DNA of 64,000 nt from Dehalococcoidia bacterium (GCA_965237935.1 OZ250168.1:464218-528217); one strand, 5' to 3'. Positions 8,303-53,329 are shown, counted from the stretch's first letter. Translations and numbers: made by a program. Notes: generated by a model not told the origin, from the sequence alone.

Positions 8303-9277
8303 TTGAAGCGCCTCCAGATCGACGTATACCTGAGTGACCAGGGCGTCCTCCATACGATGGCGGAAGATGTCCGACGGGGCCTCACCGCCACACCCAAAAC
8401 TCTGCCACCCAAGTACTTCTACGACGCAGAGGGCTCCGACCTCTTCGAGTGTATTACAGAGCTCCCCGAATATTATCCGACCCGAACTGAAAGAGGACTC
8501 CTGGCCTCCGTTGCCGAGGAGATCATGGGCCAGGTGTGTCCACGGGAACTGGTGGAGGTGGGCTCCGGCTCCTCTTCCAAGACACGCCTGCTGCTGGACT
8601 CCCGTAACGGCGCAGACACCCTGGCCCTCTACTTACCATTCGATATCAGCGAGGAGATGCTCCGCGCCTCTGCCGCTTCTCTGTTGGAGGAGTATCCGTC
8701 TCTCCACGTCCGGGGCGTCGTCGGAGCTTTTGAGCAACATCTTGACAACCTTCCACCACCCACAGGCCGCCGTCTGGTGGCCTTCCTGGGAAGCACCATA
8801 GGAAACCTGGACCCACCTCAACGTCACCTCCTCCTCCTTGAGTTGAGGGGTCTTCTGGAGCCCGACGGCAGGCTGCTTCTAGGCGTTGACCTGGTGAAGG
8901 ACGTCTCCATCCTGGAGGCGGCGTACAACGATTCAGCCGGAGTCACGGCCCAGTTCAATCGCAACATCCTGCGGGTGGTCAACCGTGGCCTGCAGGCCGA
9001 TTTCCAGCCTGATGCCTTCCAGCACCAGGCCTTCTTCAACCGGGAAGAGGCCCGCATCGAGATGCATCTAAGGCCGGTGTCGCCCCAGACCGTTCAGGTA
9101 AGGGACCTGGGGTTGACTATCGAGGTTACGCCCGAAGAGACCATATGGACCGAAAGCTCCTACAAATTCACCCATGATTCCGTCGCCGCCATGTTCCGGG
9201 ATGCGGGCCTAACCCTGGAGCGCTGGTACACCGACGCCGATAACCTGTTTGGGCTGGCCCTGGCGTCGCCGGCGTAG
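8303..9277 (+). CDS. egtD: L-histidine N-alpha-methyltransferase (ergothioneine biosynthesis EgtD)
   Basis: 324 aa, TTG start. RRGLTATPKTLPPKYFYDAEGSDLFECITELPEYYPTRTE is the characteristic EgtD N-terminal signature. Confidence 0.85.
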   Translation: MKRLQIDVYLSDQGVLHTMAEDVRRGLTATPKTLPPKYFYDAEGSDLFECITELPEYYPTRTERGLLASVAEEIMGQVCPRELVEVGSGSSSKTRLLLDSRNGADTLALYLPFDISEEMLRASAASLLEEYPSLHVRGVVGAFEQHLDNLPPPTGRRLVAFLGSTIGNLDPPQRHLLLLELRGLLEPDGRLLLGVDLVKDVSILEAAYNDSAGVTAQFNRNILRVVNRGLQADFQPDAFQHQAFFNREEARIEMHLRPVSPQTVQVRDLGLTIEVTPEETIWTESSYKFTHDSVAAMFRDAGLTLERWYTDADNLFGLALASPA

Positions 9278-9312: not shown

Positions 9313-10635
9313 CTACAAAGCTACGGTCCGGAAGCCCGCGAAGACGTTGCGCCGGTCCGGGGTGTAGAAGTTGCGCCAGGTGTTGCGAATGAGGCGGGAG
9401 CGAGTGGCCCAGCACCCTCCTCGTAGCACCCTCTGCCCTCCGAAAGAAGGCTCTGAATACTCCCTGTACGGATCCGCCACAAACCCTGGGTAGGGCCTAA
9501 AGGTGTCTGCGGTCCACTCCCAGACGTTGCCCATCATCTGGCGGCACCCAAAGGCGCTATCCCCGGCAGCCAGGGCGCGAACGTCCACGCAGTCCATGTT
9601 GGCCGCGTCAAGGTTGGCCCTTTCGGGCGTTGGTGGCTCATCGCCCCAGGGGTACCTTCGCTTGCGCCGTGATATGCCGAGGCCATCAGGCGTCGGCTCA
9701 GCGCTGGCGGCGGTTTCCCATTCAGCCTCGGTGGGCAGGCGCCGACCCGCCCACGCACAGTATGCGTCGGCCTCATACCAGTTGACGTGGATTACGGGGT
9801 TGTCAGGCTCCACCGGTACCAGGGTATCGAAGCGACACCGGTACCATCTTCCATCTGAGCCCCGCTGCCAATAGGCCGGATGCTCGGCCTTCTCTAGGGT
9901 GAGCCACTCCCAACCCTCATCGCTCCAGAGCTCCCGCTGTCGGTAACCACCCGACTCCACAAAGGCCTGGAACTGGGCGTTGGTCACCGGCGTGGCAGAG
10001 ATACGGAAGGGCGCTACCTCCACAGGATGTGCCCACTTCTCGTTGTCGAAGACAAAGGGGATGTCCGGGGTCGCCCCCAGAAGAAAGGCGCCGCCGGGTA
10101 TCTCCACATCGTGGGGTTCAAAATCAGGGTCTACCAGGACATCGGTCCCGTTGCGCCCGATAGAGGAGAGCGAGGGGCAGGGGTACCCCAGGGTCTGCCT
10201 TATGTGGGTCATGGTCTCGGTGTGCATATCCTCATGACAGATGACCAGGCGGTAGAAGTACATCTCCTCCTCGGTGGGCTCCCTGGAATCCAGCCGGCGA
10301 ATGCACTGCTCCAGCACGTCGCTAATGTACTCCAGAGTCTCCTGCCTAGTGGGGTATGACGGCGCCCATCTGCGGGCGTTGGGAATGATAAAGGAGTCGT
10401 AGAGGGAATCGGCGTAGCCCCGCAGCGATTCCGCATTGTCCAGGTTCCGCAGTATCCACTTCTCCTGGAACCAGCCAACGTGGCCCATCTCCCAAATGAG
10501 AGGTTCGATTACCGGCATGGGAGGGCCCAGCAGCTGCTCATCGGTCAGCCCGGATAGCAGCTCCAGCTCCCGAGTGCGAGCATCTGCCAGTTGTTGAATC
10601 AGCTCCGCGGCCGTAGTTGGGGTCGTAAGGTTCAC
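9313..10635 (-). CDS. egtB: hercynine sulfoxide synthase EgtB (DinB_2 + FGE-sulfatase domains)
   Basis: 440 aa, GTG start after AAGGAGG. DinB-like N-terminal half, then an FGE-type C-terminal half ending GNVWEWT .. RGG.W. Confidence 0.85.
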   Translation of the reverse strand: MNLTTPTTAAELIQQLADARTRELELLSGLTDEQLLGPPMPVIEPLIWEMGHVGWFQEKWILRNLDNAESLRGYADSLYDSFIIPNARRWAPSYPTRQETLEYISDVLEQCIRRLDSREPTEEEMYFYRLVICHEDMHTETMTHIRQTLGYPCPSLSSIGRNGTDVLVDPDFEPHDVEIPGGAFLLGATPDIPFVFDNEKWAHPVEVAPFRISATPVTNAQFQAFVESGGYRQRELWSDEGWEWLTLEKAEHPAYWQRGSDGRWYRCRFDTLVPVEPDNPVIHVNWYEADAYCAWAGRRLPTEAEWETAASAEPTPDGLGISRRKRRYPWGDEPPTPERANLDAANMDCVDVRALAAGDSAFGCRQMMGNVWEWTADTFRPYPGFVADPYREYSEPSFGGQRVLRGGCWATRSRLIRNTWRNFYTPDRRNVFAGFRTVAL

Positions 10636-10738: not shown

Positions 10739-11836
10739 TTATTCGGAACCTTGACTTTTGGGCTGGGCTAGCAGAGCGTGGCAGAAGCGGGCTGTGTCCA
10801 CCAGGTCGGGTATGGGCACGTACTCCCGGGTGGTGTGCATCTCCCTGGTGGACATCCCCACCACAACGCACTGTATGCCGTGACGGTTGAAGATGTTGGC
10901 GTCGGTACCGCCTCCCGAGGGCACTACGCTGGGCTGAAGCCCCAGGGTAGGCAGGACGCCGCTTACCCGCAGCACCATGGGGTCGTCTGGCGATAGGGAG
11001 TACATCTCGAACTCCACCTTTATTTCGTCGTCGATGGAAGCCTCGTGGTACTTTTGCCTGGCCGCCTCCAGAATGTCTACGACCTTGAGGCGCAGCAGGT
11101 CCAGGGTCTCGATATTCCTGCTGCGAAACTCTCCGGAGAAGGAGGCCAGCTCCGGCACGGCGTTGCGCACGGACCCACCAGAGATAGTGCCCACATTGAA
11201 GGTGGTCTCCTCATCCAGGCGACCCTGGGGAAACTGGGAGATAATGTCCGTGGCGATGCTGATGGCCGAAAGCCCCTTCTCAGGCTCGACGCCGGCGTGG
11301 GCGGCGCGGCCCGTAACGTGTACATCGAAGCTCATGTAGGTGGGGCTGGCCGAGGTAATCTTACTGACGGGGCCATTGCCATCGAAGACCACGCCCTCCC
11401 CTGCCCGCACCAGAGAGAAGTCCAGGTTCCGCGCCCCCACCAGGCCGATCTCCTCTCCACGAGTGAACACTAGCTGGACGGGTATCCTCTGGGCGCCCTC
11501 CTCCTGAATGGACTGCAGACCCTCCAGGATGGCGGCGATGCCCGCTTTGCAGTCTCCCCCTAGGATGGTGGTGCCGTCGGAGACTATGCGGTCATCTTCG
11601 ATGCGAGGCTTTATACCGCGGCCCGGCTCCACCGTGTCCATGTGGGACGAGAGCAGCAGGGGAGCGTCCCCCTCCTCCGACGCTATAAGGTTGCCATGCT
11701 GGTCCCGCTGGATGGTGAAGCCCAGGGCCACCAGGCGGGCCTGAAGCTCCTGGGCCACGGCCTCCTCCTCTCCGGAGGGGCTATCGATGCGCACCAGGTC
11801 GCAGAAGGTGTTTACCAGTCTGTCGCGGTTGATCAT
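10739..11836 (-). CDS. M20-family metallopeptidase (PepT-like)
   Basis: 365 aa. LVRIDSPSGEE .. LLLSSHMDTVEPG .. GGDCKAG motifs. 4-nt ATGA overlap with the upstream gene. Confidence 0.8.
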   Translation of the reverse strand: MINRDRLVNTFCDLVRIDSPSGEEEAVAQELQARLVALGFTIQRDQHGNLIASEEGDAPLLLSSHMDTVEPGRGIKPRIEDDRIVSDGTTILGGDCKAGIAAILEGLQSIQEEGAQRIPVQLVFTRGEEIGLVGARNLDFSLVRAGEGVVFDGNGPVSKITSASPTYMSFDVHVTGRAAHAGVEPEKGLSAISIATDIISQFPQGRLDEETTFNVGTISGGSVRNAVPELASFSGEFRSRNIETLDLLRLKVVDILEAARQKYHEASIDDEIKVEFEMYSLSPDDPMVLRVSGVLPTLGLQPSVVPSGGGTDANIFNRHGIQCVVVGMSTREMHTTREYVPIPDLVDTARFCHALLAQPKSQGSE

Positions 11837-12627
11837 GGGGTGCCTCCCCCTTCCTTACGCGCCTCCACATCGGCGACCTCCTGCAGCTCCTCCTGCATAC
11901 GCCTGATGCCGTAGCGGCGGAAGGACTCCGCGTACTGGTAGGGGAGGCCGTTCTCCTTGGCGGTTCGCCCGAACCAGGCCTTTATCCCCCGGGCGAAACC
12001 CTCCTCGCCTCCTCGGCTCTCCACCCAGTCCTGTAGCTGGCTCTTGTGAGCCAGCAGCGCCTGGATCTTCAGGTCGATGACGTCGTCGATGTTGATGAAG
12101 GTATCGGACTTCTCCTGGGAGCCCCAGAAGAAGAGCTCGTCCACGTTGTGGCCCGAGAGCCCCTGCGCTATGTGCTCCGGGTAGTGGAGGCGGTCCCGAG
12201 CGTAGGGGAAAACTGCATCCGAGGTTACCAGCCCGGCGATGCGATGGTCTCGATGGATGTAGAAGGAGGTGCGGAAGGGGTCCGTGGTAAAGGCGATGTC
12301 CGGCTTGAGCCTTCGGATGTGGTAAACCAGCTGGCTACGGAAGGCGTGGTCGTCCTCCAGCTCGCCATCGCCAAAGTCAAGGAAGACCACCTCCGACACG
12401 CCGAGGATTTGGGCGGCACGCCGCTGCTCCTCCTCCCGCGCGGACCGCAGGTACTCCGCGGACATATCCGTCTCCCTACCACCCTTGTCGCCGTTGGTGG
12501 CTACCAGATAGAAGACCTCTTTGCCGGCCTTCACCAGTTGCGCCACCGTTCCAGCGCAGCCGAACTCGGCATCGTCAGGATGGGGAGTAACCACCAGCGC
12601 TCGCTGGACCGGCTCTAAGGCCTCCAT
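11833..12627 (-). CDS. PIG-L/LmbE family N-acetylglucosaminyl deacetylase
   Basis: 264 aa. ALVVTPHPDDAEFGCAGT zinc-binding motif typical of the LmbE/BshB family. Confidence 0.8.
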   Translation of the reverse strand: MEALEPVQRALVVTPHPDDAEFGCAGTVAQLVKAGKEVFYLVATNGDKGGRETDMSAEYLRSAREEEQRRAAQILGVSEVVFLDFGDGELEDDHAFRSQLVYHIRRLKPDIAFTTDPFRTSFYIHRDHRIAGLVTSDAVFPYARDRLHYPEHIAQGLSGHNVDELFFWGSQEKSDTFINIDDVIDLKIQALLAHKSQLQDWVESRGGEEGFARGIKAWFGRTAKENGLPYQYAESFRRYGIRRMQEELQEVADVEARKEGGGTP

Positions 12628-18221: not shown

Positions 18222-19877
18222 TCAGGAAGACGGTTCCGGGTGGTCAGAACCGGAGAGCCGTTCCACCATCACGCCATGCAGAACCTCCCCGAAGCGTATC
18301 GATGAGTCGGCCAGAGTAGTGAAGTCCTCGCCGTTCATGGTCAGGAGGTCGACGGGAGTCAGGGCTCGCACCGATGCCGTGTGACGCACAACCCCATTTA
18401 ATAGGGACATCTCCCCAAAATACTCGCCTCTACCCAGGGTTGCCACCGCCGTCTCCTGCCCATCCTGCTGACGGAAGACCTGAACGCGTCCTTCGAGGAT
18501 AATGTAGAAGCTTCTGGCCAGCTCCCCCTGATGGAAGATAACCTGCCCCGCCTCGTAATGGACTCTGGAGAGCGCTTCACTCCTTGTGGTGCCCTGCTGA
18601 ACGATGTCGCGGGGGAAGAGCAGCGACAGGTTCCAGTCAAGGAGCACTTTTAACTTTCGGTCCAGCCGGGGCAGCTGAAGCCAGTAGTAAGTGCGATACA
18701 TCCACCATGCCAGGAATCCCGATACCTTCCACCTCAAGACCTCGGCGGCGGCGGACCTCTTTCCCAGAGGAACAAAGACCCCCAGGCTCTTGTAGGAGAA
18801 GGATCTCGGCTGGCCTCCGTTGATGACGGCCAACACGTTCCTCGCCACGTGTTTCGCCTCTCTCAGGGCGTATTGGGCCGTGGGTGGACACGTCCCGCCT
18901 TGGCGTATATCGGGGATGGCGGCGCAATCCCCAACCGCCCAGAGGCCAGGATAGTCGGGAACGGCTAGGGTCTCGTCCACCGCTAGGCGTCCCTTGGGGC
19001 CTCTAAGGCACGGCAGCCTGTCCAGCAGCCGGTTGGGAGCGGCGCCCATGGCGGCTATCAGAGTCCTGGTTGAGATTGTGGTCCCATCGCTTAAAATGGC
19101 GCTCTCTCCAGTAGCCCCCGCTATCCTGGTGTTTAGACGTATGTCTAGTCCACGCCGCTCCATCAGCCGGTGGCTGAAGGCGGCCAGACCCTCATTGAGC
19201 TCAGGCAAAATCCGGTCCCCGCCCTGAAGCAGTATGACCTTGATGTCGTTTGGGTCAATATTATTATAGCTTTTGGCTGCTTCCTGGGCGAAGTCGTGTA
19301 TCCCCGCCGCCAGCTCAACGCCGACATAGCCACCTCCCACCACCACAAAGGTCAGCAGGCTGTCCATGTGCTCCGGGTGCTCCTCTACCTCCGCCTGTTC
19401 CAGGGTGCCGATGAGGTGGTTACGCAGGAACAGTGCGTCCCACATGGTCTTGAATGGGAAGGCGTGCTCCGCCAGGCCGGGCATAGAAGAGAGGTCCGCA
19501 CTGCTGCCCACGGCAATAATCAGGTGGTCGTAGGGCAGGTAGCGGTAGTCCTGATGTCCGGGGTGGGTGATGGCGACATAGCGGCCTACCGTATCAACGC
19601 CCTCTACCTCCGCCACATAGAAGTAGGTGTGGGGGCACAGGCGCCGTATGGGATTCACGATATGGGGAGGCTCGATGTCGCCGGAGACCACCTCCGAAAG
19701 CATCGGCTGGAACAAAAAGAAGTTGTTCCGGCTCACCAGAGTGAGGTGTATCTTCCCAGCGCGAGCCGCCTTCTGCAGCTCCAGGGCTGCGTAGACCCCG
19801 CCATATCCACCCCCCAGGATCACGACCCTGGGTGGGGTCTGGCCATCGCCTTCCCTTTTTTTTGAGCGCCCGAACAT
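18222..19877 (-). CDS. ndh: type II NADH dehydrogenase (NDH-2) fused to a C-terminal cyclic-nucleotide-binding domain
   Basis: 551 aa. Two GxGxxG dinucleotide folds (ILGGGYGG, VVGGGYVG), then YFGEMSLL..RHTASVRA, a CAP/cNMP-binding-type beta-roll signature. Confidence 0.85.
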   Translation of the reverse strand: MFGRSKKREGDGQTPPRVVILGGGYGGVYAALELQKAARAGKIHLTLVSRNNFFLFQPMLSEVVSGDIEPPHIVNPIRRLCPHTYFYVAEVEGVDTVGRYVAITHPGHQDYRYLPYDHLIIAVGSSADLSSMPGLAEHAFPFKTMWDALFLRNHLIGTLEQAEVEEHPEHMDSLLTFVVVGGGYVGVELAAGIHDFAQEAAKSYNNIDPNDIKVILLQGGDRILPELNEGLAAFSHRLMERRGLDIRLNTRIAGATGESAILSDGTTISTRTLIAAMGAAPNRLLDRLPCLRGPKGRLAVDETLAVPDYPGLWAVGDCAAIPDIRQGGTCPPTAQYALREAKHVARNVLAVINGGQPRSFSYKSLGVFVPLGKRSAAAEVLRWKVSGFLAWWMYRTYYWLQLPRLDRKLKVLLDWNLSLLFPRDIVQQGTTRSEALSRVHYEAGQVIFHQGELARSFYIILEGRVQVFRQQDGQETAVATLGRGEYFGEMSLLNGVVRHTASVRALTPVDLLTMNGEDFTTLADSSIRFGEVLHGVMVERLSGSDHPEPSS

Positions 19878-24135: not shown

Positions 24136-24741
24136 GTGCCCACCAATGAAGAGCCCCTGATAATCCTCTTAGGAGGAGTCCCCGGCTCCGGGAAGACCAC
24201 CATCGCCACCGCCCTGGTCGGCGAGGACCTGGGCATCTCCCACCACATAAGCACCGGCTTCATTCGCGCCTCCATCATGCACCTGCTGTCGGGCCGGGAC
24301 GCCGAGCTGCTGAAGAGCCACTCCTTTGACGCCTATCAGTCGCTGGAGAAGATACCGGAGGGCAGGAGCCCCATCCTTGAGGGGCTTATCCAGCAGACCA
24401 GGGTGATGCTGCCCTCCATTAAAGCCTGCATAGCCCGCGCGCAACGGGAGGGGATCGGACTGGTCCTGGAGGGCAGCCACTTCGTGCCCGGCGTGGTCGA
24501 TCCAGAAGAGGTGGGGGCTACCGTACTCTGCGTGCTGGATGCCCCCGACCTGGAATCCCTTCGCGAGAGGGTCCTGGGGCCCAACCACACCAGGCGTCAA
24601 CTTTCGGAAGAGCAGATGGACCGCCTATTGCGCCTGCGAGAGGAGATCGGGGAGATGGCCCGCGTCCATCGCCAGCCCGTGGTCGTCAACAGGCACGTCG
24701 ACGAGGCCGTGGAGCAGATACGCGCCCAGGCCGGCCGGTAA
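24136..24741 (+). CDS. P-loop kinase, 2-phosphoglycerate kinase-like (COG2074-like)
   Basis: 201 aa, GTG start. GGVPGSGKTT Walker A, ISTGFIRAS and LVLEGSHFVPG resemble 2-PGK family motifs. Confidence 0.65.
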   Translation: MPTNEEPLIILLGGVPGSGKTTIATALVGEDLGISHHISTGFIRASIMHLLSGRDAELLKSHSFDAYQSLEKIPEGRSPILEGLIQQTRVMLPSIKACIARAQREGIGLVLEGSHFVPGVVDPEEVGATVLCVLDAPDLESLRERVLGPNHTRRQLSEEQMDRLLRLREEIGEMARVHRQPVVVNRHVDEAVEQIRAQAGR

Positions 24742-24826: not shown

Positions 24827-24854
24827 TTGACATCGGGGGCGCAGGACTTAGAAT
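24827..24854 (+). promoter_or_regulatory. putative promoter of the sdhA-like operon
   Basis: TTGACA (24827..24832), 16-nt spacer, TAGAAT (24849..24854). Confidence 0.5.
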
Positions 24855-24898: not shown

Positions 24899-26557
24899 AT
24901 GCCGGATGTAATCGTGGTTGGAGGAGGAGTGGCCGGGCTACGGGCCGCCATTGAAGCCAAGCGAGCAGGCGCCGACGTCGTCCTCCTCTCCAAGGCCCAT
25001 CCAACCCGCAGCTACTCCATCAACATACAGGACGGCATCAACGCCGCCATCGCCGGGGGGGACTCCCGTGACAGCCACGCCGAGGACACCATCATCGCGG
25101 GGGATTTCCTGGCCGAGCAGGACAGGGTAGAACAGCTAGTTCAGGATGCGCCCCAGATCATCCGGCAACTGGACCAGATGGGCGTGCCCTTCAACCGCAA
25201 CCCTCACAAGGAGTTCGCCACCTTCCAGGCGCCGGGGGCCAGCGGGCCCCGCTGCGCTTATGTCGACGACATGTCCGGCCACGTCCTGGTGCAGGTGCTG
25301 TACGAGCAGGCCCTTCAGGCCAACGTCACCCTTCTTGAGGAGTGGTTCGTCGCCTCTCTGAACATCGATGGCTCCACCTGCCGAGGAGTAACCGCCGTGG
25401 AGCTGAGCTCCGGCAGGGTCCAGCATCTCCCGGCCAAGGCGGTGGTCCTGGCCACGGGAGGTGCCCGCAGGATCTTCGACCCGAGCACGGCTTCTCTCCT
25501 CTGCAGCGGCGACGGCATGGCTCTGGCCTACAGGGGTGGAGTACCCCTGGTGGACATGGAGTTTGTCCAGTTCCATCCCTACGTAGTCAAGGGGACTCCC
25601 CTCGCCCTGAGCGATCTGCTGGTTACCCCGGAGGCCGCCGTGGTCAACAAGGACGGCACCCGGTTCCTAGAGGCTGTCGGGCAAAAGGAGATGACCTATC
25701 GTGACGTGGGAGCCAGGGCCCTGGCCGCCGAAATCCGGGAAGGACGTGGCGAGGACGGCTCCGTAAAGCTCAAGGTCTCCATCGACCCATCCCAGAAGAA
25801 GTCGGTCTTTCACAACACCAGCACCTTCCTCTCCAGCCTGGCAAAGCTAGATCTGGTAGAGGACGGCCTCCCTGTGCGACCCGCCATGTACCGCAACCTG
25901 GGCGGCATAGACACCGACGGCCAAGGCGCCACCGCCGTCAAAGGGCTATACGCCGCCGGAGCATGCGCATGGTCGGGCATCCACGGCGCCAACCTCCTGG
26001 GCGGCGATGAGCTGATGGTCTCGGTGGCCCTGGGCGCCAAAGCAGGGACCGCCGCCGCCGAGTACGCTCGCGGCCTCTCCCCACCCACTGCAAGCGAGGC
26101 TGCCGTCTCCGACCTGGAGACCCAGGTAGACGCTCTCCTGGCCCAGGGAAAAGGCGAAGATACCATAGGCGGGCTCCTTGGCGAGCTCTCCTCCACCATG
26201 AGCGATAAGGCGGGCCTCCTCCGGGACGCCGCCGGCCTGGCGGAGGCCTCGGAGAAGCTCCCGCAGCTAAAGGAGCGATACCAGAAGATAGGCCTGACCA
26301 ACCACAAGAAAGCTTTCAATTTCGAGCTCCCGGCTCTAGTGGAGCTGGGCTTCATGCTGGACACGGCCCAGGCCATCGTTTCCAGCGCCTCGGCTCGACA
26401 GGAGAGCCGTGGCTCCCACTTCAGGAGAGACTTCCCCCAGCGTGACGACCAGCAGTGGCTCAAGCACACCCTGGCTTCATACGCCGACGGAGGTCCCAAG
26501 CTGGACTATCGCCCCGTAACCGTAACCAAATGGCAGCCCAAGCCCAGGGAGGGCTAG
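24899..26557 (+). CDS. SdhA/FrdA-superfamily FAD flavoprotein with a divergent active site
   Basis: 552 aa. VIVVGGGVAGLRAA FAD fold and overall SdhA colinearity. However RSHT is RSYS, P.xHYxMGG is PAMYRNLGG, and HGANRLG is HGANLLG. Confidence 0.85.
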   Translation: MPDVIVVGGGVAGLRAAIEAKRAGADVVLLSKAHPTRSYSINIQDGINAAIAGGDSRDSHAEDTIIAGDFLAEQDRVEQLVQDAPQIIRQLDQMGVPFNRNPHKEFATFQAPGASGPRCAYVDDMSGHVLVQVLYEQALQANVTLLEEWFVASLNIDGSTCRGVTAVELSSGRVQHLPAKAVVLATGGARRIFDPSTASLLCSGDGMALAYRGGVPLVDMEFVQFHPYVVKGTPLALSDLLVTPEAAVVNKDGTRFLEAVGQKEMTYRDVGARALAAEIREGRGEDGSVKLKVSIDPSQKKSVFHNTSTFLSSLAKLDLVEDGLPVRPAMYRNLGGIDTDGQGATAVKGLYAAGACAWSGIHGANLLGGDELMVSVALGAKAGTAAAEYARGLSPPTASEAAVSDLETQVDALLAQGKGEDTIGGLLGELSSTMSDKAGLLRDAAGLAEASEKLPQLKERYQKIGLTNHKKAFNFELPALVELGFMLDTAQAIVSSASARQESRGSHFRRDFPQRDDQQWLKHTLASYADGGPKLDYRPVTVTKWQPKPREG

Positions 26558-26643
26558 TGCCCTATTCGTCAAGTTCTAAGGTCTTGGTCGTAACCGAAAA
26601 ATTGATTAGCCTGACAGCCCACCAGGGGTAACGGAGGCAAGCG

Positions 26644-27597
26644 ATGGAAGTGAAGCTTCAAGTATATAGATACGACTCCGATAATGATGAGAAGGCCTAT
26701 CTACAGGAGTATACGGTGGACCTCCCTGAGGAGACCACCGTCCTCCAGGCCCTAAGTCACGTTCGAGACACCCAGGACGGCTCAATAGCCTTTCGGGGCA
26801 ACTGTCATCGCGGCTTCTGCGGCGACTGCACTCTCAAGGTGAACGGCAGGAGCACCTACGCCTGCATACAAACCCTGGGCCAGGCGGGCGCCAAGGGCGA
26901 AGTCAAGGTGGAGCCCATCAAGTACGTCCAGGTGCTGAAGGACCTGGTCTCCGATACCGAGAAGTTCCTATGGCGAAAGCAGAAAATGAACGCCCCCGGC
27001 ATTGTGGCCGGGGCCAATGGGACGGACGGCTTCTCCGACCAGGAGCTGCAGCAGGTCCGTGTGGCCATGCGATGCACCGTCTGCGGCCTCTGCGACGAGG
27101 GTTGCACTGTCATCGACATCGACCAGGAGTTCATGGGGCCCGCCGGCCTGACCAAGGCCTACCGTTACGCCTTCGATCCACGAGACTCCATCACAGCGCA
27201 ACGACTGAAGGATATCGGAGAGCCCAAGGGCCTCTGGGACTGCGTACACTGCTTCGAGGCCACCGAGCATTGCCCCAAGGAGATAGCCACCACCGACAAG
27301 ATCTTTGAGCTACGGGACAAGGCGGTGGCCATGGGCATCAAGTCCGGCGACAGGAACAAACGTATGGCTCGCCACTACGATAGCTTCGCCAAGTCCATCA
27401 AGAACAGCGGCTGGCTGAATGAGGCCCGACTGACCTTGGAGTCGGAGGGCATCCTGGGCATGGGTAAGTGGATCCCCATGGGGCTCAAGGCCCTGCCCAG
27501 AGGGAAGGCCCCACTGCTCCACCACAAGCGGCCAGATAGCCAAGCGATTCGCAAGATATTCGAGAAGTGGGAGGCCAAGCAGAAGGAGAAGGGATAG
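26644..27597 (+). CDS. SdhB/FrdB-like iron-sulfur subunit with C-terminal extension
   Basis: 317 aa. 2Fe-2S CHRGFCGDC..C, CTVCGLCDEGC, and CVHCFEATEHCP (extra Cys, as in type-E enzymes). Confidence 0.85.
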   Translation: MEVKLQVYRYDSDNDEKAYLQEYTVDLPEETTVLQALSHVRDTQDGSIAFRGNCHRGFCGDCTLKVNGRSTYACIQTLGQAGAKGEVKVEPIKYVQVLKDLVSDTEKFLWRKQKMNAPGIVAGANGTDGFSDQELQQVRVAMRCTVCGLCDEGCTVIDIDQEFMGPAGLTKAYRYAFDPRDSITAQRLKDIGEPKGLWDCVHCFEATEHCPKEIATTDKIFELRDKAVAMGIKSGDRNKRMARHYDSFAKSIKNSGWLNEARLTLESEGILGMGKWIPMGLKALPRGKAPLLHHKRPDSQAIRKIFEKWEAKQKEKG

Positions 27598-27692
27598 CTC
27601 CCTCTTCGATTCTCCCCCTGGATGGGGGAAGGTCAGGTAGGGGGGCACCCACTAAAGTCTATTGGACTCGTAGGTAGGGAGGGAATGTAAAA

Positions 27693-28565
27693 ATGCAACG
27701 CTTCGCACTGTACACCGGCTGTGTTTCCAAGGGAGGATGCCCGGAGCTCTACTCGGCGATAGTTAAGGTCGCCGACATGCTGGGCATCGAGTTGGAGGAG
27801 ATGAAGGACGTTGGCTGCACCGGCGCCGGGGTCCTGAGCCAGGAGGTATCGGACCCCATCAACGCCCGTACCCTGGCCAAGGCCGAGGCCATGGGGCTTC
27901 CCCTCATGACCATATGCAGCACCTGCACCGGCGTCCTGGGTATCGCCAACCATCGTCTAAAGTCGGACCCGGAGTACCGGGAGGAGATCAATCGCGAGTA
28001 TCTTGACGACATGGACCTGGAGTACAAAGGTACTACCGACGTGAAGCACTTCCTTTGGGCCCTGGTGGAGGACTTTGGCATCGACGAGCTCAAGGCTAGG
28101 GTGCAGCGACCCCTGAGCAACTTCAAGATATCCCCCTTCTACGGCTGCTACCTGCGGCGGCCCGACGAGTCCATCCAGATTCCGGCCAGAAAGCGATACC
28201 TGGAGCAGGTCATCGAGGCCGTGGGTGGAGAGGTGGTGGACATCAGCGGCAAGGGCAAGTGCTGCGGCTTCCCCATTCTTATGGCGGAGGACGAGAACGC
28301 CATGCTAATGTCCGCCAAGCATAGCGGCGAGGCCCTAGACAAGGGGGCCAACTGCATGGTGACGCCCTGCCCCCTCTGCCACCTGAACCTGGACGGGAAT
28401 CAACCCATGGCCGAGAAGGTGGCCAAGCGTGACATCGATATGCCCATTCTCCACCTTCCGCAGCTCGTGGGGCTGGCCCTGGGAGCCAGTCCCAAGGAGA
28501 TGGAGCTTCAGCGGCACATCGTCTCCACCAAGGTCCTTTCGGCCCAGGTGGATGTGCTAACGTAA
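27693..28565 (+). CDS. HdrB/SdhE-like CCG-domain subunit
   Basis: 290 aa. Second-half CCG motif GKCCGFP .. TPCPLCHLNL. The first half has the degenerate form GCTGAG .. CSTC. Confidence 0.8.
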   Translation: MQRFALYTGCVSKGGCPELYSAIVKVADMLGIELEEMKDVGCTGAGVLSQEVSDPINARTLAKAEAMGLPLMTICSTCTGVLGIANHRLKSDPEYREEINREYLDDMDLEYKGTTDVKHFLWALVEDFGIDELKARVQRPLSNFKISPFYGCYLRRPDESIQIPARKRYLEQVIEAVGGEVVDISGKGKCCGFPILMAEDENAMLMSAKHSGEALDKGANCMVTPCPLCHLNLDGNQPMAEKVAKRDIDMPILHLPQLVGLALGASPKEMELQRHIVSTKVLSAQVDVLT

Positions 28566-28624: not shown

Positions 28625-28725
28625 TGTCCCGAGAGGCAGAGCGGACCCGCAACGCGGCGGGACGGTGGTAGAAATGCCCTGGATCGCAGGCAGCGGCCAA
28701 GCGGAGGTTTCTCGGGGCGCTTTTT
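28625..28725 (+). ncRNA. candidate orphan small RNA (about 100 nt)
   Basis: Follows the promoter above. A 10-bp terminal helix (28625..28634 with 28710..28719) is followed directly by C-TTTTT. Internal GAAA-capped hairpin at 28667..28678. No ORF. The ends are estimates. Confidence 0.35.
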
Positions 28726-29698
28726 ATTCGGCGCTGGCTTCAGGCCGCAGGATCCAGATAAAGGGAAGGTTCCGGTACTTCTCCATGTAGTCCAGGCCGT
28801 AGCCCACGACAAACTCGTCGGGCACCTCGAAGCCTACGTAGTCCAGGGGTATGTCCACCAGCCGTCGGACCTTCTTATCCAGCAGGGTGCACACCTTTAA
28901 ACTGGCCGGGGCTTTACCTTCCAGATACTTTAGCAGATAGCTAAGCGTCATCCCAGTATCGACTATGTCTTCCACCATGATTACGTCCTGGCCCGCCAGA
29001 CTTGTATCCAGGTCCTTGGTGACGTGGACACCGCCATCGTCGCCTCCGGCGTAGCGGGAGATGGACATGAGGTCTACGGAGAGGGGCAGAGAGATCTCCC
29101 TCATCAGGTCGGCCATAAAACAGAGCATCCCCCTTAGGACCCCCACCAGGACCGGCTGCTTACCTGTGTAATCCTTGGAAATCTGCCGGCCCAGTTCAGC
29201 CACCCTCGACTGGATCTGGTTGGTGCTGAACAGCACTTTTTCGATACTCTGTACATCGCTGGTGGCCAGGGGGCCAAAGCCGTATTTGGCCAGCAGCCGG
29301 TGGTAGTCACGCCGGTAGAGGAGCTTTACGTTGACGTCTGGGTAGAGCTCCCTTAAGTGCCTTAGCTTGCGGTTCTTTTCGGTTACCAGGCGCTGCTGGA
29401 GGGTCGTAAGCTCCACGTAGAGGTCTAGCTGGGGCATGTAGAAGTCCGGCGTGAACATCTCCAACACCCGCTTTCCCTCCCAACGCAAAGGAAAGGAGCG
29501 GGGCTCATAGTCCCATTTCAGGCCGTAGAAGTCCAGGATGCGGGAGAATTCCTGTTCGCTGGGATGAGCGAAGTGGGCATCCTGGGAAACTTTGGCCCTC
29601 TCAACGATTTTGGGCGGGGTGTTTGCCTTGGCGGCGGTGCGGCGCCTCCGGGTTTCGACTACAGTCTTTGGGCTGGCGCCCTCCTCGACTTGGGTCAC
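28724..29698 (-). CDS. hpt: hypoxanthine phosphoribosyltransferase with an N-terminal PD-(D/E)xK-like extension of about 150 aa
   Basis: 324 aa, GTG start. The C-terminal ~175 aa are classic HPRT (VIMVEDIVDTGMTLSYL PRPP loop). The N-terminal part carries SEQEF .. TPDFYMP..LDLYVELT .. K. Confidence 0.85.
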   Translation of the reverse strand: MTQVEEGASPKTVVETRRRRTAAKANTPPKIVERAKVSQDAHFAHPSEQEFSRILDFYGLKWDYEPRSFPLRWEGKRVLEMFTPDFYMPQLDLYVELTTLQQRLVTEKNRKLRHLRELYPDVNVKLLYRRDYHRLLAKYGFGPLATSDVQSIEKVLFSTNQIQSRVAELGRQISKDYTGKQPVLVGVLRGMLCFMADLMREISLPLSVDLMSISRYAGGDDGGVHVTKDLDTSLAGQDVIMVEDIVDTGMTLSYLLKYLEGKAPASLKVCTLLDKKVRRLVDIPLDYVGFEVPDEFVVGYGLDYMEKYRNLPFIWILRPEASAE

Positions 29699-44492: not shown

Positions 44493-45788
44493 CTAACCCG
44501 CCATTACTTTAGCCATATCTGGGTGGCCAGTCTTATTATAGCTATCATACAAGTCCATCAGCACCGATGCCAGCTTTTTGGGGTCGTGGTGCAAGCGGAA
44601 ATCCCTGTTCACCACGTCGGCTGTGACTACTGGAACCTTGCTATGGACGTCCCCGTCCAGCGGCACGGGCGAAGCTAGGAACTGGGGCCCCAGCGGAGCG
44701 ACGTTATCGTTGGCCAGTACGTAGTCCACTAGATTGGGGCCGGCGTGTCGCTGAAGGGCTTCCAGGTGGTCGGCCACGGAGAAGCCGTCGGTCTCCCCCT
44801 TCTGGGTGGCGACGTTGCAGACGAAGACTTTCATGGCCTGGGACCGACTGATAGCTGCCCCAATACCCTTGACCAGGAGGTTAGGTAGAATACTGGTGTA
44901 GAGGCTGCCCGGACCTATGATGATGAACTGAGCGTCGGCTATAGCCTGCACTGCGTCGGGATAAGCCTCCGCGTCGTCGGGCTCCAGGTACAGCCGCTTT
45001 ATCTTGCCTCCGCGCTCGGTGATACTGGACTCGCCCCGGACTATAGCTTCGTCGTCCATCTGGGCGGTGAGACTCATGCTGGCCAGGGTTGAAGGCAGAA
45101 TTTCACCCCGCACAGCCAGTACCCGGCTGGACTCATATATCGCCCTCTCAAAGCTGCCCGTGACCCCTGACATAGCCACTATGAAGAGGTTGCCAAAGCT
45201 GTGCCCCTCCAGCCCGGAACCTTTGCCAAACCGGTACTGGAAAAGCCTGGTGACCAGAGGCTCAGCGTCGGCCATAGCCACCAGGCAGTCCCGGAAGTCC
45301 CCAGGGGGAAGGATGCCCAGCTCCCGGCGCAGGCGTCCAGAGCTTCCCCCGTCATCGGCCACGGTGACGATGGCGGTGAGGTTGCTGGTGTGCTCCTTCA
45401 ATCCCCTCAGCAGAGTGGAGAGGCCCGTACCACCGCCGATGGCCACCACCAGAGGCCCCCTCTCGCGCTGGCGAAGGCTGTAGAGGGTGTGAGCCAGGCT
45501 GTCGCTACTGTGGGAGGATAGAAGCAGGGGGCCTACCGAGCGGTAGAAGCCGTAGGCGGCAACGCAGATGACCGCCAGCCCCAGAAGACCAAAAAGAAGG
45601 CCCTGGGCCCAATAGGGTAAAAGTTTGGGGAAAGGACTATCAAAGAAGCTGGTAAGAACGTACGCCACCCCCAAGGCAGCGACAACCAGCCCCACCCCTC
45701 CCAGGAGGAGCCATCGCTTGAACCGTAGGCCTGGATACAGCAGCCTAAGAGCGTCCTGGAGGCCAGAGCTTTGCTCCTTCAGGCTCAT
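44493..45788 (-). CDS. YvcK/CofD-family (gluconeogenesis factor-like) protein with N-terminal TM segments
   Basis: 431 aa. [18 protein letters not shown] signature. Confidence 0.8.
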
Positions 45789-47523: not shown

Positions 47524-48018
47524 TTGGCCACCGAGAGCGCAACCCTGAGGCTAAAGGCCAGAGAGGCCCTGGCGGCCCAGAAGCAGCCCAGCGTCACACC
47601 CTTGTCCTCCCTTCTGGCCGTACAGGACGCCCTGGGGTACCTGCCGGTGGAGGCCGTAGAAGAGGTAGCCGCCTTCACCAGCTCCACCATCAACGATGTT
47701 TGGGGAGTGGCCTCCTTTTACCTTAACTTCCGCTTTACACCGGCCCCCGAGCATACCGTAGAGGTCTGCTGGGGACCCACCTGCCACCTGATGGGCGCTC
47801 CCCGCATTCTGGAAGCCTTCCAGGAGGTCCTGGGGGTAACCGGCGAAAGTGAGACCAGCGATGGCAAGTTCGCCCTCAAGTACAACACCTGCCTCGGGGC
47901 CTGCTCACAGGCTCCCGCTATCAGCATCGACCACCACCTAGTCGGAAGGGTGGAGCCTCGACGGATCGTCGAGGGCCTGGCTAGAAGCTGGGCGCTACCC
48001 TTTATCAGAGGGAAGTAA
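47524..48018 (+). CDS. NuoE/FdsG-like 2Fe-2S subunit
   Basis: Start moved to TTG 47524 (GGAGG 8 nt upstream); the track start 47479 overlaps a -10-like TGTGTTATATT. Motifs CWGPTCHLMG .. CLGACSQAP. Confidence 0.75.
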   Translation: MATESATLRLKAREALAAQKQPSVTPLSSLLAVQDALGYLPVEAVEEVAAFTSSTINDVWGVASFYLNFRFTPAPEHTVEVCWGPTCHLMGAPRILEAFQEVLGVTGESETSDGKFALKYNTCLGACSQAPAISIDHHLVGRVEPRRIVEGLARSWALPFIRGK

Positions 48019-49748
48019 TGGCGACCTACCTGGAGCTAAAGTCCAGGGCCGACGAGACCTGGCAAGGCCTGATCCAGGGAACTACTCCCTGGATACGGGT
48101 GGGCACCGCCATCTGTGGCCAGGCGGCGGGAGCCCCAGAGGTGGTGGAGGCTCTCCGCGCTGAGCTGGAGAGACGAGGCATTCAGGCCCTGGTCACCGAG
48201 GTGGGCTGCCTCGGACTCTGCTATGCGGAGCCCCTGGTGGACATCCTGAAGCCGGGTAGCTCCCGTATCCTCTTCAAAAACGTCACCCCAGAGATGGTCC
48301 CCCAACTCGTCGAGTCCTATCTGGTCAACGACTCTCCACCTGCCGAATGGGCCCTGGGGCATCTGGGAGAGGGGAGGAATTACGGCGTACCGGACCTGGA
48401 GCAGATGCCTGTCATGAAGCTGCAGCTCCGAATCGCCCTGCGCAACGCCGGCCATATCGATCCCGGCGACATCTACCAGTACATCGCCAACGGGGGGTAC
48501 GCCGGCCTGAACAGGGCCCTCCTTCACATGGAGCGGGAGCAGGTAGTGGAGGAGGTCACCAACTCTGGACTGCGAGGCCGCGGAGGGGCGGCCTTCCCTA
48601 CGGGCACCAAGTGGAGCTTCCTGGTCCGGGCTCAGGAGCCTGTGAAATACATTCTCTGCAACTGCGAGGAGGGCGACCCCGGCGCCTTTAATGACAAAGG
48701 AATTCTGGAGAGCGATCCCCATACTCTCCTGGAGGGCATGATTATCGGAGGCTATGCCACCCTGGCCACCAAGGGATACGTCTTCATACGCCACGGCCAC
48801 GACGGCCCAATAGAGCGCACCCGCATAGCCATACAGCAGGCATACGAGGCCGGCCTCCTGGGAGAAAACATCCTGGACAGCGGCTTCAGCTTCGACATTG
48901 AAGTGGCCCTGACGGGGGACTCCTACGTCTCAGGAGAGGAGACGGCCCTCATGGAGGCCATCGAGGGGAAGCGCGCCATGCCCCGGACCAGACCTCCCTT
49001 CCCGGCCCAAGCGGGCCTGTGGGGCAAGCCCAGCAACATAAACAACGTCAAGACCCTTGCCTACATCCCTGAGATCGTTTCGAGGGGGGCCCAGTGGTTC
49101 TCCGACATCGGCGTAAACCGCAGCAAGGGGACTGCCATCCTGTGCCTTACGGGGAAAGTCGCCAGACCCGGCCTCTACGAGGTCGCCATGGGAATAACTC
49201 TGCGCCAGGTCATCGATGAAATCGCCGGGGGTGTTCCCAACGGCAAGAGCCTGAAGCTCCTCCAGACGGGAGGGCCCCTGGGAGGCGTCCTGAACGCCGA
49301 GATGGCTGACGTGCCCCTGGACTTCGAGGAGATGGCCCAGGCGGGCGCTATCCTGGGCTCCGGCGGCATAATCGTCGCCGACGAGGACACCTGCGCCGTG
49401 GACTTTACCAGGGTCCTGGTGACCTTCTGCCAGTACGAGTCCTGCGGCAAGTGCTTCCCCTGCCGCCTGGGCTTTACCCATATGACGGAGATCCTGGAGC
49501 GGATATGTCGCGGCGAAGCCCGGCCCAGAGACCTGGACCTTATGCCAGGCATAGGCCAGAGCATAGCCGGTGGCTCCCTCTGCGGCCACGGGCAGCTCGG
49601 CTACAATCCCGTGAGGTCGGCTCTGCAGTATTTCGCCGAAGACTTTAGGGTCCACGTGGAGGAGGGACGCTGTCCCACCGGAAGCTGTGGCGGCCCCATC
49701 ATCGCCCCAGCCCGGACCAGGCCTCAACCGGTGATCGTCGCAACTTAA
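48018..49748 (+). CDS. NuoF/FdsB-like NADH-binding FMN/4Fe-4S subunit with N-terminal thioredoxin-like domain
   Basis: 576 aa. GLRGRGGAAFPTG, CNCEEGDPGAF, SCGKCFPCR motifs. The N-terminal domain keeps only three Cys. Confidence 0.9.
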   Translation: MATYLELKSRADETWQGLIQGTTPWIRVGTAICGQAAGAPEVVEALRAELERRGIQALVTEVGCLGLCYAEPLVDILKPGSSRILFKNVTPEMVPQLVESYLVNDSPPAEWALGHLGEGRNYGVPDLEQMPVMKLQLRIALRNAGHIDPGDIYQYIANGGYAGLNRALLHMEREQVVEEVTNSGLRGRGGAAFPTGTKWSFLVRAQEPVKYILCNCEEGDPGAFNDKGILESDPHTLLEGMIIGGYATLATKGYVFIRHGHDGPIERTRIAIQQAYEAGLLGENILDSGFSFDIEVALTGDSYVSGEETALMEAIEGKRAMPRTRPPFPAQAGLWGKPSNINNVKTLAYIPEIVSRGAQWFSDIGVNRSKGTAILCLTGKVARPGLYEVAMGITLRQVIDEIAGGVPNGKSLKLLQTGGPLGGVLNAEMADVPLDFEEMAQAGAILGSGGIIVADEDTCAVDFTRVLVTFCQYESCGKCFPCRLGFTHMTEILERICRGEARPRDLDLMPGIGQSIAGGSLCGHGQLGYNPVRSALQYFAEDFRVHVEEGRCPTGSCGGPIIAPARTRPQPVIVAT

Positions 49749-49764
49749 TACCAAGAGAGTTAGT

Positions 49765-52533: not shown

Positions 52534-52567
52534 GGGTCCATAACTGGAGGTCAAAGCCGATTCGTCT

Positions 52568-53329
52568 ATGACGAGCGTACCTGAGACGAGACCCCGAGAG
52601 AACACACAGCCGACGCCGCCCAGATTGGCCAAAGCGACGGTGGCGGCGAGAAAGAACCTGACCGAGGACCTGTGGGCCATGTGGCTCAAGCCGGACATCC
52701 CCTATCCCTTCAAGGCGGGCCAGTACTGCACCATAGGCCTGGACGGCATAGAGAGAGCCTACTCCATAGTCTCAGCTCCTCATGAGCCTGAGCTGGAGCT
52801 TTTCATAGGGCTGATTGAACACGGGCATCTGACTCCTAAGCTTTGGCCCCTGGATGTGGGAGACCTGGTCTCCCTCCGTCCCAGGGCTAAAGGCATCTTC
52901 ACCTTTGACCCTGCGCTCCCCAACCATCTGATGGTATGCACAGTAACGGGAATCGCTCCTTTCGTAAGCATAATACGTGACTATATCCACACAGGGATGA
53001 AGGGCCACAGGTTCTACCTGCTTCAGGGCTCCAGCTACGTGGACTACTTCGCCTACGACCGGGAGATGGCGACTCTGTCGGCGGAGTACCCGGAGCTTAT
53101 CACGTACGTTCCCGCTATCAGCAGGCCCAACGACGAGAGAAACCGAGGCTGGTCCGGCGCTACGGGCCGCGTGAACAACATCGTAGATGGTCTCGCCGAG
53201 AAGTGGGGCCTGGATAGCCAGTCTACCCTGGTCTATCTGTGCGGCAACCCCGGGATGATACAGGAGGCCAAGAAGACCTTGGCCCCCAAGGAATTCAGGA
53301 TCAGAGAGGAGCGCTTCTGGAAGGAGTAG
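52568..53329 (+). CDS. ferredoxin--NADP(+) reductase-type flavoprotein
   Basis: 253 aa. RAYSIVS (RxYS FAD motif) and MVCTVTGIAPF NAD(P) motif. Confidence 0.85.
   Translation: MTSVPETRPRENTQPTPPRLAKATVAARKNLTEDLWAMWLKPDIPYPFKAGQYCTIGLDGIERAYSIVSAPHEPELELFIGLIEHGHLTPKLWPLDVGDLVSLRPRAKGIFTFDPALPNHLMVCTVTGIAPFVSIIRDYIHTGMKGHRFYLLQGSSYVDYFAYDREMATLSAEYPELITYVPAISRPNDERNRGWSGATGRVNNIVDGLAEKWGLDSQSTLVYLCGNPGMIQEAKKTLAPKEFRIREERFWKE

Follow-up and report, generated by a model that had tools for sequence, protein, structure and literature searches.

The stretch of DNA analysed here (the window) comprises 64,000 nucleotides from a Dehalococcoidia bacterium (GCA_965237935.1 OZ250168.1:464218-528217). 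On its plus strand, at positions 24899-28565, three open reading frames (ORFs) encode an SdhA-like flavoprotein, an SdhB-like Fe-S subunit, and an HdrB/SdhE-like CCG subunit (Table 1), and their coordinates match exactly those of an initial annotation made from the sequence. The ORFs and their Pfam domains also agree with the gene content proposed there and fit a type-E-like succinate:quinone oxidoreductase (SQR), an 8-methylmenaquinol:fumarate reductase (MFR), or an unfused thiol:fumarate reductase (TFR). The genes are separated by 86 nt (flavoprotein to SdhB) and 95 nt (SdhB to CCG), and each is preceded by a Shine-Dalgarno-like sequence. No transmembrane segment or signal peptide was found in any of the three subunits, which suggests a cytoplasmic three-subunit complex that would be bound to the membrane peripherally at most, as proposed for type-E SdhE (PMC2754724). 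An Rfam search of the window gave no matches, and no canonical sdh or frd genes were present within the 64 kb.

Table 1. Positions of the operon, its motifs, and other features mentioned in the text, in the window and in related contigs.
Feature	Sequence	Positions	Strand	Details
Flavoprotein, SdhA/FrdA-fold	window	24899-26557	+	552 aa; Pfam FAD_binding_2 + Succ_DH_flav_C; dN/dS 0.14
RSYS, Tyr39 at the 8-alpha-N3-histidyl FAD ligand (FrdA His44)	window	25007-25018	+	alignments
Capping loop SDLLVTPEA (S238-A246)	window	25610-25636	+	gapless against FrdA T244-EGCRGEG-G
PAMYRNLGGI, Tyr331 at FrdA His355 column	window	25880-25909	+	alignments
HGANLLG, Leu366 at FrdA Arg390 column	window	25982-26002	+	alignments
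SdhB-like Fe-S subunit	window	26644-27597	+	317 aa; Pfam Fer2_3 + Fer4 (4Fe-4S dicluster); dN/dS 0.29
SdhB motif II, C200-V-H-C203-F-E-A206-T-E-H-C210-P	window	27241-27276	+	Cys at position 4, Ala at position 7
HdrB/SdhE-like CCG subunit	window	27693-28565	+	290 aa; Pfam 2x CCG + HdrB-like_C; dN/dS 0.09
Promoter-like site TTGACA-16 nt-TAGAAT	window	24827-24854	+	consensus scan, 11/12 positions match; pattern match only
P-loop kinase-like gene	window	24136-24741	+	201 aa; upstream of operon, recurrent neighbour
Kinase-like gene	L001	9239-9844
Kinase-like gene	L014	883-1425
Kinase-like gene	L097	11-571	-
Kinase-like gene	L166	9007-9579	-
Kinase-like gene	L168	9079-9660	-
Non-canonical operon followed by canonical SdhA/SdhB pair	L031	6001-12289		deltaproteobacterial MAG
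Non-canonical operon followed by canonical SdhA/SdhB pair	L035	6001-13285		Binatia MAG
CofD-family gene	window	44493-45788	-	431-455 aa in the three contigs
CofD-family gene	L083	13763-15067
CofD-family gene	L084	13661-15028
Hpt-like phosphoribosyltransferase	window	28724-29698	-	N-terminal extension of ~140 aa without Pfam match
EgtD-like histidine methyltransferase	window	8303-9277	+	Methyltransf_33
EgtB-like sulfoxide synthase	window	9313-10635	-	DinB_2 + FGE-sulfatase
PIG-L deacetylase	window	11833-12627
Pyridine-nucleotide-disulfide oxidoreductase	window	18222-19877	-	C-terminal cyclic-nucleotide-binding domain
NuoF-like FMN/Fe-S protein, molybdopterin/Fe-S protein, NAD_binding_1 reductase	window	48018-53329	+	in tandem; molybdopterin/Fe-S protein of 922 aa
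Flagellin_arch-type genes	L168	1269-2911
MetE-like gene, half-size	window	61596-62570	-	Meth_synt_2; 324 aa
MetE-like gene, half-size	window	62567-63541	-	Meth_synt_2; 324 aa

Few respiratory enzymes are as highly conserved as the complex II flavoproteins, in which the residues of the active site are regarded as invariant in textbooks. The AlphaFold model of the window flavoprotein (pLDDT 86.8, pTM 0.91) superposes on E. coli FrdA (1kf6_A) with a TM score of 0.94 and 2.3 Å over about 575 columns. As modelled, the protein has the full four-domain SdhA/FrdA fold (FAD-binding, capping, helical, and C-terminal domains) and is colinear with SdhA/FrdA, as had been stated for SdhA in the initial annotation. 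Individual residues were placed by HMMER alignments to E. coli FrdA (1kf6) and M. smegmatis SdhA (6lum) and by a 121-sequence MAFFT alignment, with results that agree. Misalignment as the source of the substitutions described below was ruled out, as HMMER, MAFFT, and the structural superposition are concordant.

In FrdA, His232, His355, and Arg390 align fumarate, while Thr244 twists it and Arg287 protonates it (PMC5773532). The covalent His raises the flavin midpoint potential (Em) by ~100 mV and is required for succinate oxidation, whereas E. coli enzymes deprived of this ligand remain able to reduce fumarate; covalent flavinylation is lost when H355 or R390 is mutated (PMC5773532). In the window protein, the position of the covalent ligand is taken by Tyr39, and the FrdA His355 and Arg390 columns, both invariant in 72 of 72 canonical relatives, hold Tyr331 and Leu366. 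FrdA His232 and Arg287 are retained as His226 (QFHPY) and Arg268 (TYRDV). Up to this point the initial annotation had read the active site correctly, but the TEGCRGEGG loop, which it had described as shortened to TPEAA, was found to be substituted at equal length in a gapless alignment, with Thr244 changed to Ser238, Glu245 to Asp239, and Arg248 to Val242. The dicarboxylate-binding set (FrdA H232, T244, R287, H355, and R390; PMC5773532) is thus incomplete, with His226, Arg268, and Ser238 present and Tyr331 and Leu366 as replacements. As Tyr39 stands in place of the His ligand, the FAD is most likely bound non-covalently. An 8-alpha-O-tyrosyl bond between Tyr39 and FAD, a linkage unknown in the superfamily, is unlikely because His355 and Arg390, which are needed for flavinylation, are lost. 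Three further changes lie nearby: the equivalent of FrdA Phe116, which we take to be part of the Wolinella fumarate site, is Ala111; Asp45 turns the canonical Q-G-G into Q-D-G in a loop that presumably adjoins flavin N5; and Arg332 adjoins the FrdA His355 column. Taken together, the pocket would thus have shifted from strongly cationic to neutral/aromatic, with one added carboxylate.

Among the best 120 database matches of the flavoprotein, about 60% show the canonical pattern (His...His-Thr-Thr/Ser-Glu-Arg-Glu-Arg-His-Arg) and the others fall into several non-canonical groups; the exact residue pattern of the window occurs in only one of these matches, P0001. The exact window protein is not on record. 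Its TIGR01812 score is 500.1 bits, below the cutoff of 567.3; canonical relatives score above the cutoff (685 for P0003, and 762), and non-canonical relatives score 389-517.

The substitutions occur in a gene that is clearly maintained. The ratio of non-synonymous to synonymous substitution rates (dN/dS, Nei-Gojobori) was calculated between the window and P0001/L001, a syntenic relative at 95% identity that comes from an ENA metagenome assembly of a different sample. The values for the flavoprotein, SdhB, and CCG (0.14, 0.29, and 0.09) compare with 0.16-0.28 for five housekeeping neighbours. The two flavoproteins differ by 28 amino acids, none of them at a key residue, and the identity of the active-site residues in a relative from another sample indicates that the substitutions are not due to chance. 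Of the 105 near-invariant columns (at least 90% conserved in 119 relatives), the window flavoprotein retains 95, and the ten deviating columns centre on the active site (Glu239Asp, Gly245Glu, His331Tyr, and Glu355Ala, in window numbering). A decaying, non-functional succinate dehydrogenase paralog would account for the loss of several catalytic residues and of a conserved FAD-proximal Glu. However, such an origin is very improbable in view of three intact frames with ribosome-binding sites, dN/dS values on a par with those of housekeeping neighbours, and an architecture maintained across a deep, widespread clade; dN/dS and the retained invariant columns count against a pseudogene. The complex is intact and under purifying selection, and the flavoprotein has undergone targeted remodelling, not decay.

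The SdhB-like subunit carries a C-terminal extension and contains 11 Cys, all inside cluster motifs (4 + 4 + 3): a 2Fe-2S motif (C54..C74), motif I (C144-x2-C-x2-C-x3-C154), and motif II. The last of these, given in the initial annotation as CVHCFEATEHCP, does contain the extra type-E Cys noted there (position 4), but Ala206 stands at position 7, where all classical and type-E SdhB proteins have the canonical third Cys. The four-Cys third-cluster motif of type-E enzymes (C-x2-C-x2-C-x3-C-P), present in all canonical type-E loci compared, is not preserved in the window SdhB. Cys200, Cys203, and the final Cys of motif I would ligate the third cluster, which may be either a [3Fe-4S] held in an unusual manner or a [4Fe-4S] whose fourth ligand is not Cys; the site is flanked by a conserved His and a conserved Glu.

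HdrB (5odc_B) is the solved structure closest to the CCG subunit, with an alignment that spans the full length (E = 4e-44), and the best NCBIfam match of the CCG subunit is MFR SdhE. The C-terminal motif is complete (C152...C190-C191-G...C226-x2-C229), while the N-terminal one is altered (C10, a new C16, C42-T43-G44, C75-x2-C78), so that nine motif Cys out of ten remain and one has moved (Cys16). Type-E SdhE has been defined by two complete CX(n)CCGX(m)CXXC motifs (PMC2754724), and the window protein departs from this definition at the N-terminal motif. With one cluster Cys absent from SdhB and the N-terminal CCG motif altered, the Fe-S/CCG electron path has not simply been kept, as had been supposed initially.

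The same three-gene order is found in the type-E SQR SdhABE(F) of Sulfolobus and Acidianus and in the MFR SdhABE of Wolinella and Campylobacter (PMC2754724, PMC2680327). The likeness extends to a CCG subunit in place of the haem b anchor, to the lack of a transmembrane helix, and to an Fe-S protein that is long at its C-terminal end and carries a further Cys in the motif of the third cluster. In contrast to these enzymes, the window flavoprotein lacks the covalent His and two dicarboxylate-aligning residues, its SdhB has three instead of four Cys in the third motif, and its N-terminal CCG is CTG with a relocated Cys. MFR is periplasmic, whereas the window N-terminus reads MPDVIVVGGG and has no Tat signal, and all curated MFR scores are far below their cutoffs (SdhA 333/1100, SdhB 143/600, and SdhE 209/500). 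The TfrAB of methanogens, a soluble enzyme with a thiol-pair donor, also combines SdhA-like, SdhB-like, and HdrB-like (CCG) modules without a membrane anchor. TfrB, however, fuses the Fe-S and CCG modules that are encoded separately in the window, the scores are low (TfrA 329/718 and TfrB 124/385), and a Chloroflexota host is not expected to make coenzyme M/coenzyme B (CoM/CoB); TfrA, moreover, retains the fumarate site. The CCG subunit shares with HdrB a complete C-terminal CCG motif, but scores 176 against the TIGR03288 cutoff of 345, has Thr for the second Cys of the N-terminal CCG and the extra Cys16, and is partnered with SdhA/SdhB-like proteins instead of HdrA/HdrC. NadB (TIGR00551 320 against a cutoff of 453) stands alone and retains the His/Arg pair, whereas the window protein has SdhB/CCG partners and lacks H355/R390.

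A change of active site leading to a new substrate has precedents within the FAD_binding_2 domain, i.e., UrdA, ARD, and the methacrylate and cinnamate reductases. In UrdA, Tyr replaces a fumarate-binding His (PMC7921117; bioRxiv 10.1101/2022.01.20.477176). Fumarate, urocanate, methacrylate, and acrylate reductases all conserve Motif I (FrdA Arg287/His355/Arg390), and substrate switching among them occurs via Motif II (His232/Thr244) (bioRxiv 10.1101/2022.01.20.477176; PMC7921117). The substrate-shifted enzymes keep the Motif I Arg/His/Arg clamp, as does Fcc3, and vary Motif II. The window protein is the reverse: it has kept the Motif II His but just one Motif I residue out of three, Arg268, which is equivalent to Arg402. 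The UrdA/ARD-type enzymes further belong to the Fcc3 branch and are soluble/periplasmic with FMN_bind or cytochrome domains, whereas the window protein has SdhB/CCG partners and belongs to the SdhA/FrdA branch with Succ_DH_flav_C. We class the complex as a known respiratory scaffold in which the catalytic site has been rebuilt and the set of cluster ligands changed. In agreement with its initial description as a candidate undescribed complex, a literature search found no paper on the clade to which it belongs, on SdhA-like proteins with these substitutions, or on an SdhB with C-x2-C-x2-A, although this is not proof of absence.

Species-representative genomes and metagenome contigs were scanned for related loci, which gave 63 operons with all three genes; in the species-representative genomes no relative was closer than 46%. 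Neighbour-joining trees (100 bootstraps) were built from all three subunits and from SdhB plus CCG and were read for topology and support values. The window and L001 form a pair with a bootstrap of 100. Together they fall into a 13-member clade, here called Tyr-type, with a bootstrap of 100 for the three subunits and 97 for SdhB plus CCG alone; the latter value makes the placement independent of the flavoprotein's own active site. The distinct clade with conserved substitutions that the initial annotation had envisaged thus exists. The Tyr-type clade and the SdhB'/CCG'-signature family around it are defined in this analysis and are not a published family. All Tyr-type members with an organism on record (L014, L017, L018, L021, L022, L026, and L034) are Dehalococcoidia, SAR202, or other Chloroflexota metagenome-assembled genomes (MAGs); the remaining members are metagenome contigs (the window, L001, L002, L084, L085, and L104), of which GatB placed only the window in Chloroflexota.

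Tyr39, Asp45, Arg190, and the loss of Arg366 are common features of the Tyr-type clade. At the column of FrdA His44, Tyr is found in 87% of the clade and His in 97% of the canonical sequences. Asp45 and Arg190 are invariant in the clade; Arg190 lies just after the ATGG motif, a position from which it probably touches the ADP part of FAD and not the substrate. A further clade position in the window protein is Ala198, which replaces Asn. The family as a whole is marked by signatures absent from canonical type-E operons: C-x-x-C-G-L-C-D-E-G-C as SdhB motif I, C-x-H-C-[FWY]-E-A-x-x-H-C-P as SdhB motif II, and, in the CCG protein, C-[TS]-G for C-C-G plus G-x-C-P-E-L-Y. The window operon belongs to the Tyr-type clade by its tree position, clade residues, and SdhB and CCG signatures. 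The motif II signature is rare: when 1.84 billion cluster representatives were searched exhaustively, only 9 of the 150 best SdhB matches carried it. Across 80 metagenome loci, a CCG protein at least 60% identical to that of the window pairs with a signature SdhB, and the flavoprotein was non-canonical in seven of the eight such loci with a full upstream gene readable, about half of the 80 loci being too short; loci with a CCG identity of at most 58% had a four-Cys SdhB and canonical flavoproteins.

The single exception among the eight, L097, belongs to the "HHH" sister clade. The Tyr-type clade is nested in a 99%-supported non-canonical group, which also includes Binatia and deltaproteobacterial MAGs, and the "HHH" clade (P0003, P0028, L097, and L166-L168, from uncultured Chloroflexota-like contigs) is the sister of that group. 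It shares the SdhB C-x-H-C-x-E-A signature, a CCG protein with C[TS]G that is 63-68% identical to the window's, and a kinase-like neighbour of 57-58% identity. Its flavoprotein, 47-50% identical, has all canonical residues (H..HTTERERHR), and the clade presumably represents a real succinate/fumarate enzyme. As the SdhB and CCG changes are also found in this canonical-site clade, they are not part of the substrate change. The family thus spans three states: the canonical sister clade, intermediates without Arg248 only, and the fully remodelled Tyr-type clade. On two contigs outside the Tyr-type clade, L031 and L035, a non-canonical operon of the Arg248-to-Leu type with Asn at the covalent-His position is directly followed by a canonical SdhA/SdhB pair whose SdhA reads HEHTTER[ED]RHR. 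Such side-by-side copies imply that, in those lineages at least, the non-canonical paralogs are not simple replacements. P0028, on a contig from the sample of P0001, was considered as a canonical copy in the same genome and rejected, since the GC content (63.9 vs 59.6%) and a tetranucleotide correlation of 0.72, against 0.83-0.95 within the genome, point to what is probably another organism.

The subunits of the family are not equally conserved. Mean identity within the family is 65% for CCG (range 57-78%), 52% for SdhB, and 46% for the flavoprotein, and this order holds in all 66 family pairs. Canonical type-E operons show the highest conservation in the flavoprotein instead (66% against 56% for CCG), and CCG identity was higher in none of ten pairs. 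Within the family, therefore, the flavoprotein active site is the most variable part and the CCG subunit the most conserved, the opposite of what holds for canonical complex II. One would expect such a pattern if a constant electron-transfer module carried a diversifying catalytic head, a reading that agrees with the lineage-specific operon neighbourhoods (MFS transporter and formamidase-like; HAD hydrolase and class II aldolases; acyl-CoA dehydrogenase; amidohydrolase/alcohol dehydrogenase (ADH)). The strong conservation of the CCG subunit (lowest dN/dS of the three), the wide variation of the former active-site columns among subclades, and the fact that its closest solved relative is the catalytic HdrB would also fit a complex in which the CCG subunit carries out the conserved chemistry, a disulfide reduction or a reaction with quinone, and the flavoprotein only passes electrons or is structural. 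Low-molecular-weight thiol pathways that could suit such a role are encoded in the window (ergothioneine genes and a PIG-L deacetylase). Nevertheless, we consider this improbable, since the flavoprotein is under strong purifying selection that includes the remodelled residues, and the new residues are conserved within subclades (A-T-E-W in ~15 sequences, Asp45/Arg190 throughout), which suggests a site in use; a four-domain protein of this size would also be costly as a structural element.

With moderate confidence, we favour a neofunctionalised oxidoreductase with non-covalent FAD and a substrate other than succinate or fumarate, which would have descended from a type-E-like succinate:quinone oxidoreductase/fumarate reductase. 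On this model, the carboxylate clamp is gone (FrdA His355/Arg390 to Tyr331/Leu366 and Phe116 to Ala111) and the proton relay would be cut (Arg248 to Val242), while Asp45 is new next to flavin N5 and His226 and the catalytic Arg268 remain. A pocket rebuilt in this way most likely takes another substrate, probably a molecule less anionic than succinate or fumarate, which may be either oxidised or reduced. Electrons would pass through a [2Fe-2S], a [4Fe-4S], and the unusually ligated third cluster, whose three Cys are arranged as C-x2-C...C, and then through two Fe-S sites of the CCG subunit; the final partner would be a quinone or, less likely, a thiol/disulfide couple. We infer the direction from the low potential expected of a non-covalent flavin, which would favour a reductase, or a dehydrogenase for a low-potential donor.

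Several observations weigh against this model. Nearly all FAD-binding motifs are retained, but in the exception, Glu355 to Ala, a conserved motif close to FAD is changed, and the flavin might be bound less tightly as a result. Within its clade the window lineage is the least derived, with His226 and Arg268 kept and with Ser238 and Asp239 standing for Thr and Glu, so that some fumarate-reductase-like chemistry may persist. The operon sits among housekeeping genes without a catabolic partner and, as no canonical sdh/frd was found in the 64 kb, it could be the organism's only complex-II-like enzyme. In addition, a fully canonical site is found in the sister clade, which has the SdhB/CCG signatures and the kinase-like neighbour in common with the window operon. 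The retained residues, the housekeeping context, and the canonical sister clade are also what one would see if the enzyme were still a fumarate reductase, quinol- or thiol-dependent and with non-covalent FAD and rearranged binding residues, serving as the organism's reductive complex-II equivalent. Removal of the covalent ligand leaves fumarate reduction intact in the E. coli enzymes (PMC5773532), the proton donor Arg268 is retained, and the new basic residues (the invariant Arg190, and Arg332) might compensate for those lost. Yet fumarate is aligned by three residues of the flavin domain, two of which are His355 and Arg390, and this pair is conserved not only in the canonical relatives but in every characterised reductase of the domain. 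The equivalent of Phe116, part of the Wolinella fumarate site, is also lost, and Arg190 probably contacts the ADP part of FAD and not the substrate. Other Tyr-type members also lack the Arg287 and His232 equivalents, a poor fit with a conserved fumarate function. On this evidence a retained fumarate reductase appears unlikely, though less so than the other alternatives.

That an SdhA/SdhB/CCG complex stays intact and under selection without the carboxylate clamp suggests that new chemistry has arisen on a long-established respiratory scaffold. Relatives are named "FAD-binding protein" and "HdrB family protein" by NCBI, whereas in JGI records, with P0074 and P0137 among many, Tyr-type flavoproteins appear as 'succinate dehydrogenase/fumarate reductase flavoprotein subunit' and the CCG protein, which has no haem, as 'cytochrome b subunit'. 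The JGI labels are likely a systematic misannotation that affects tricarboxylic acid (TCA) cycle calls in Chloroflexota/SAR202, and where the enzyme is annotated as succinate dehydrogenase, reconstructions of the TCA cycle and of respiration in Dehalococcoidia/SAR202 may be wrong. More tentatively, and with a good deal of doubt, the family could represent a so far unrecognised, conserved SdhB/CCG module with radiating SdhA-derived heads for non-dicarboxylate substrates, widespread in Chloroflexota, including the abundant deep-ocean SAR202, and in a few other phyla. If so, it would be the membrane-linked equivalent of the sets of soluble 'flavin reductases' found in gut bacteria, and many genes in these genomes would have been miscalled as 'complex II'. 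The three states of the family form a natural experiment from which one could learn how substrate specificity and covalent flavinylation change in evolution, and also what roles are played by the CCG subunit and by the atypical third Fe-S cluster.

Upstream of the operon lies a P-loop kinase-like gene, and the promoter-like site stands between the two, ending 45 nt 5' of the flavoprotein start. The kinase-like protein has a weak 2-phosphoglycerate-kinase-like match (91 bits, below the cutoff) and no sequence relative in the PDB. The gene adjoins the operon in six family loci (the window, L001, L014, L097, L166, and L168), with 51-93% identity, and these include loci with a canonical flavoprotein. 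It is possibly an accessory or assembly factor and is probably transcribed apart from the operon. As it accompanies the canonical-site sister clade too, it was dropped as a clue to the substrate. A link to F420, with the complex as a dehydro-F420 reductase, was likewise dropped: the CofD-family proteins are 39-41% identical, and the gene is not adjacent in the window. CofD-family genes adjoin Tyr-type operons on two contigs and lie 16 kb off in the window, which is probably coincidence.

The gene content of the window is mainly housekeeping (SUF, pyruvate kinase, ClpB, CysS, GatB, and citrate synthase). All named relatives of its GatB are from Chloroflexota or Dehalococcoidia, and the best one outside its own lineage is 72% identical, which indicates a deep-branching Chloroflexota host. 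Flagellin_arch-type genes were seen on L168, a contig whose composition is like that of the window's Chloroflexota genome. Convergent with the end of the operon is the Hpt-like phosphoribosyltransferase gene, which is kept in L001. Judging from its EgtD-like and EgtB-like genes, the window genome appears able to make ergothioneine, and the PIG-L deacetylase gene lies close by. The gene for a pyridine-nucleotide-disulfide oxidoreductase fused in one protein to a cyclic-nucleotide-binding domain is located directly 3' of pyruvate kinase on the same strand, an order kept in L001. The tandem NuoF-like, molybdopterin/Fe-S, and NAD_binding_1 reductase genes resemble a soluble NAD-linked formate dehydrogenase module. 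Near the end of the window, two half-size MetE-like genes overlap each other.

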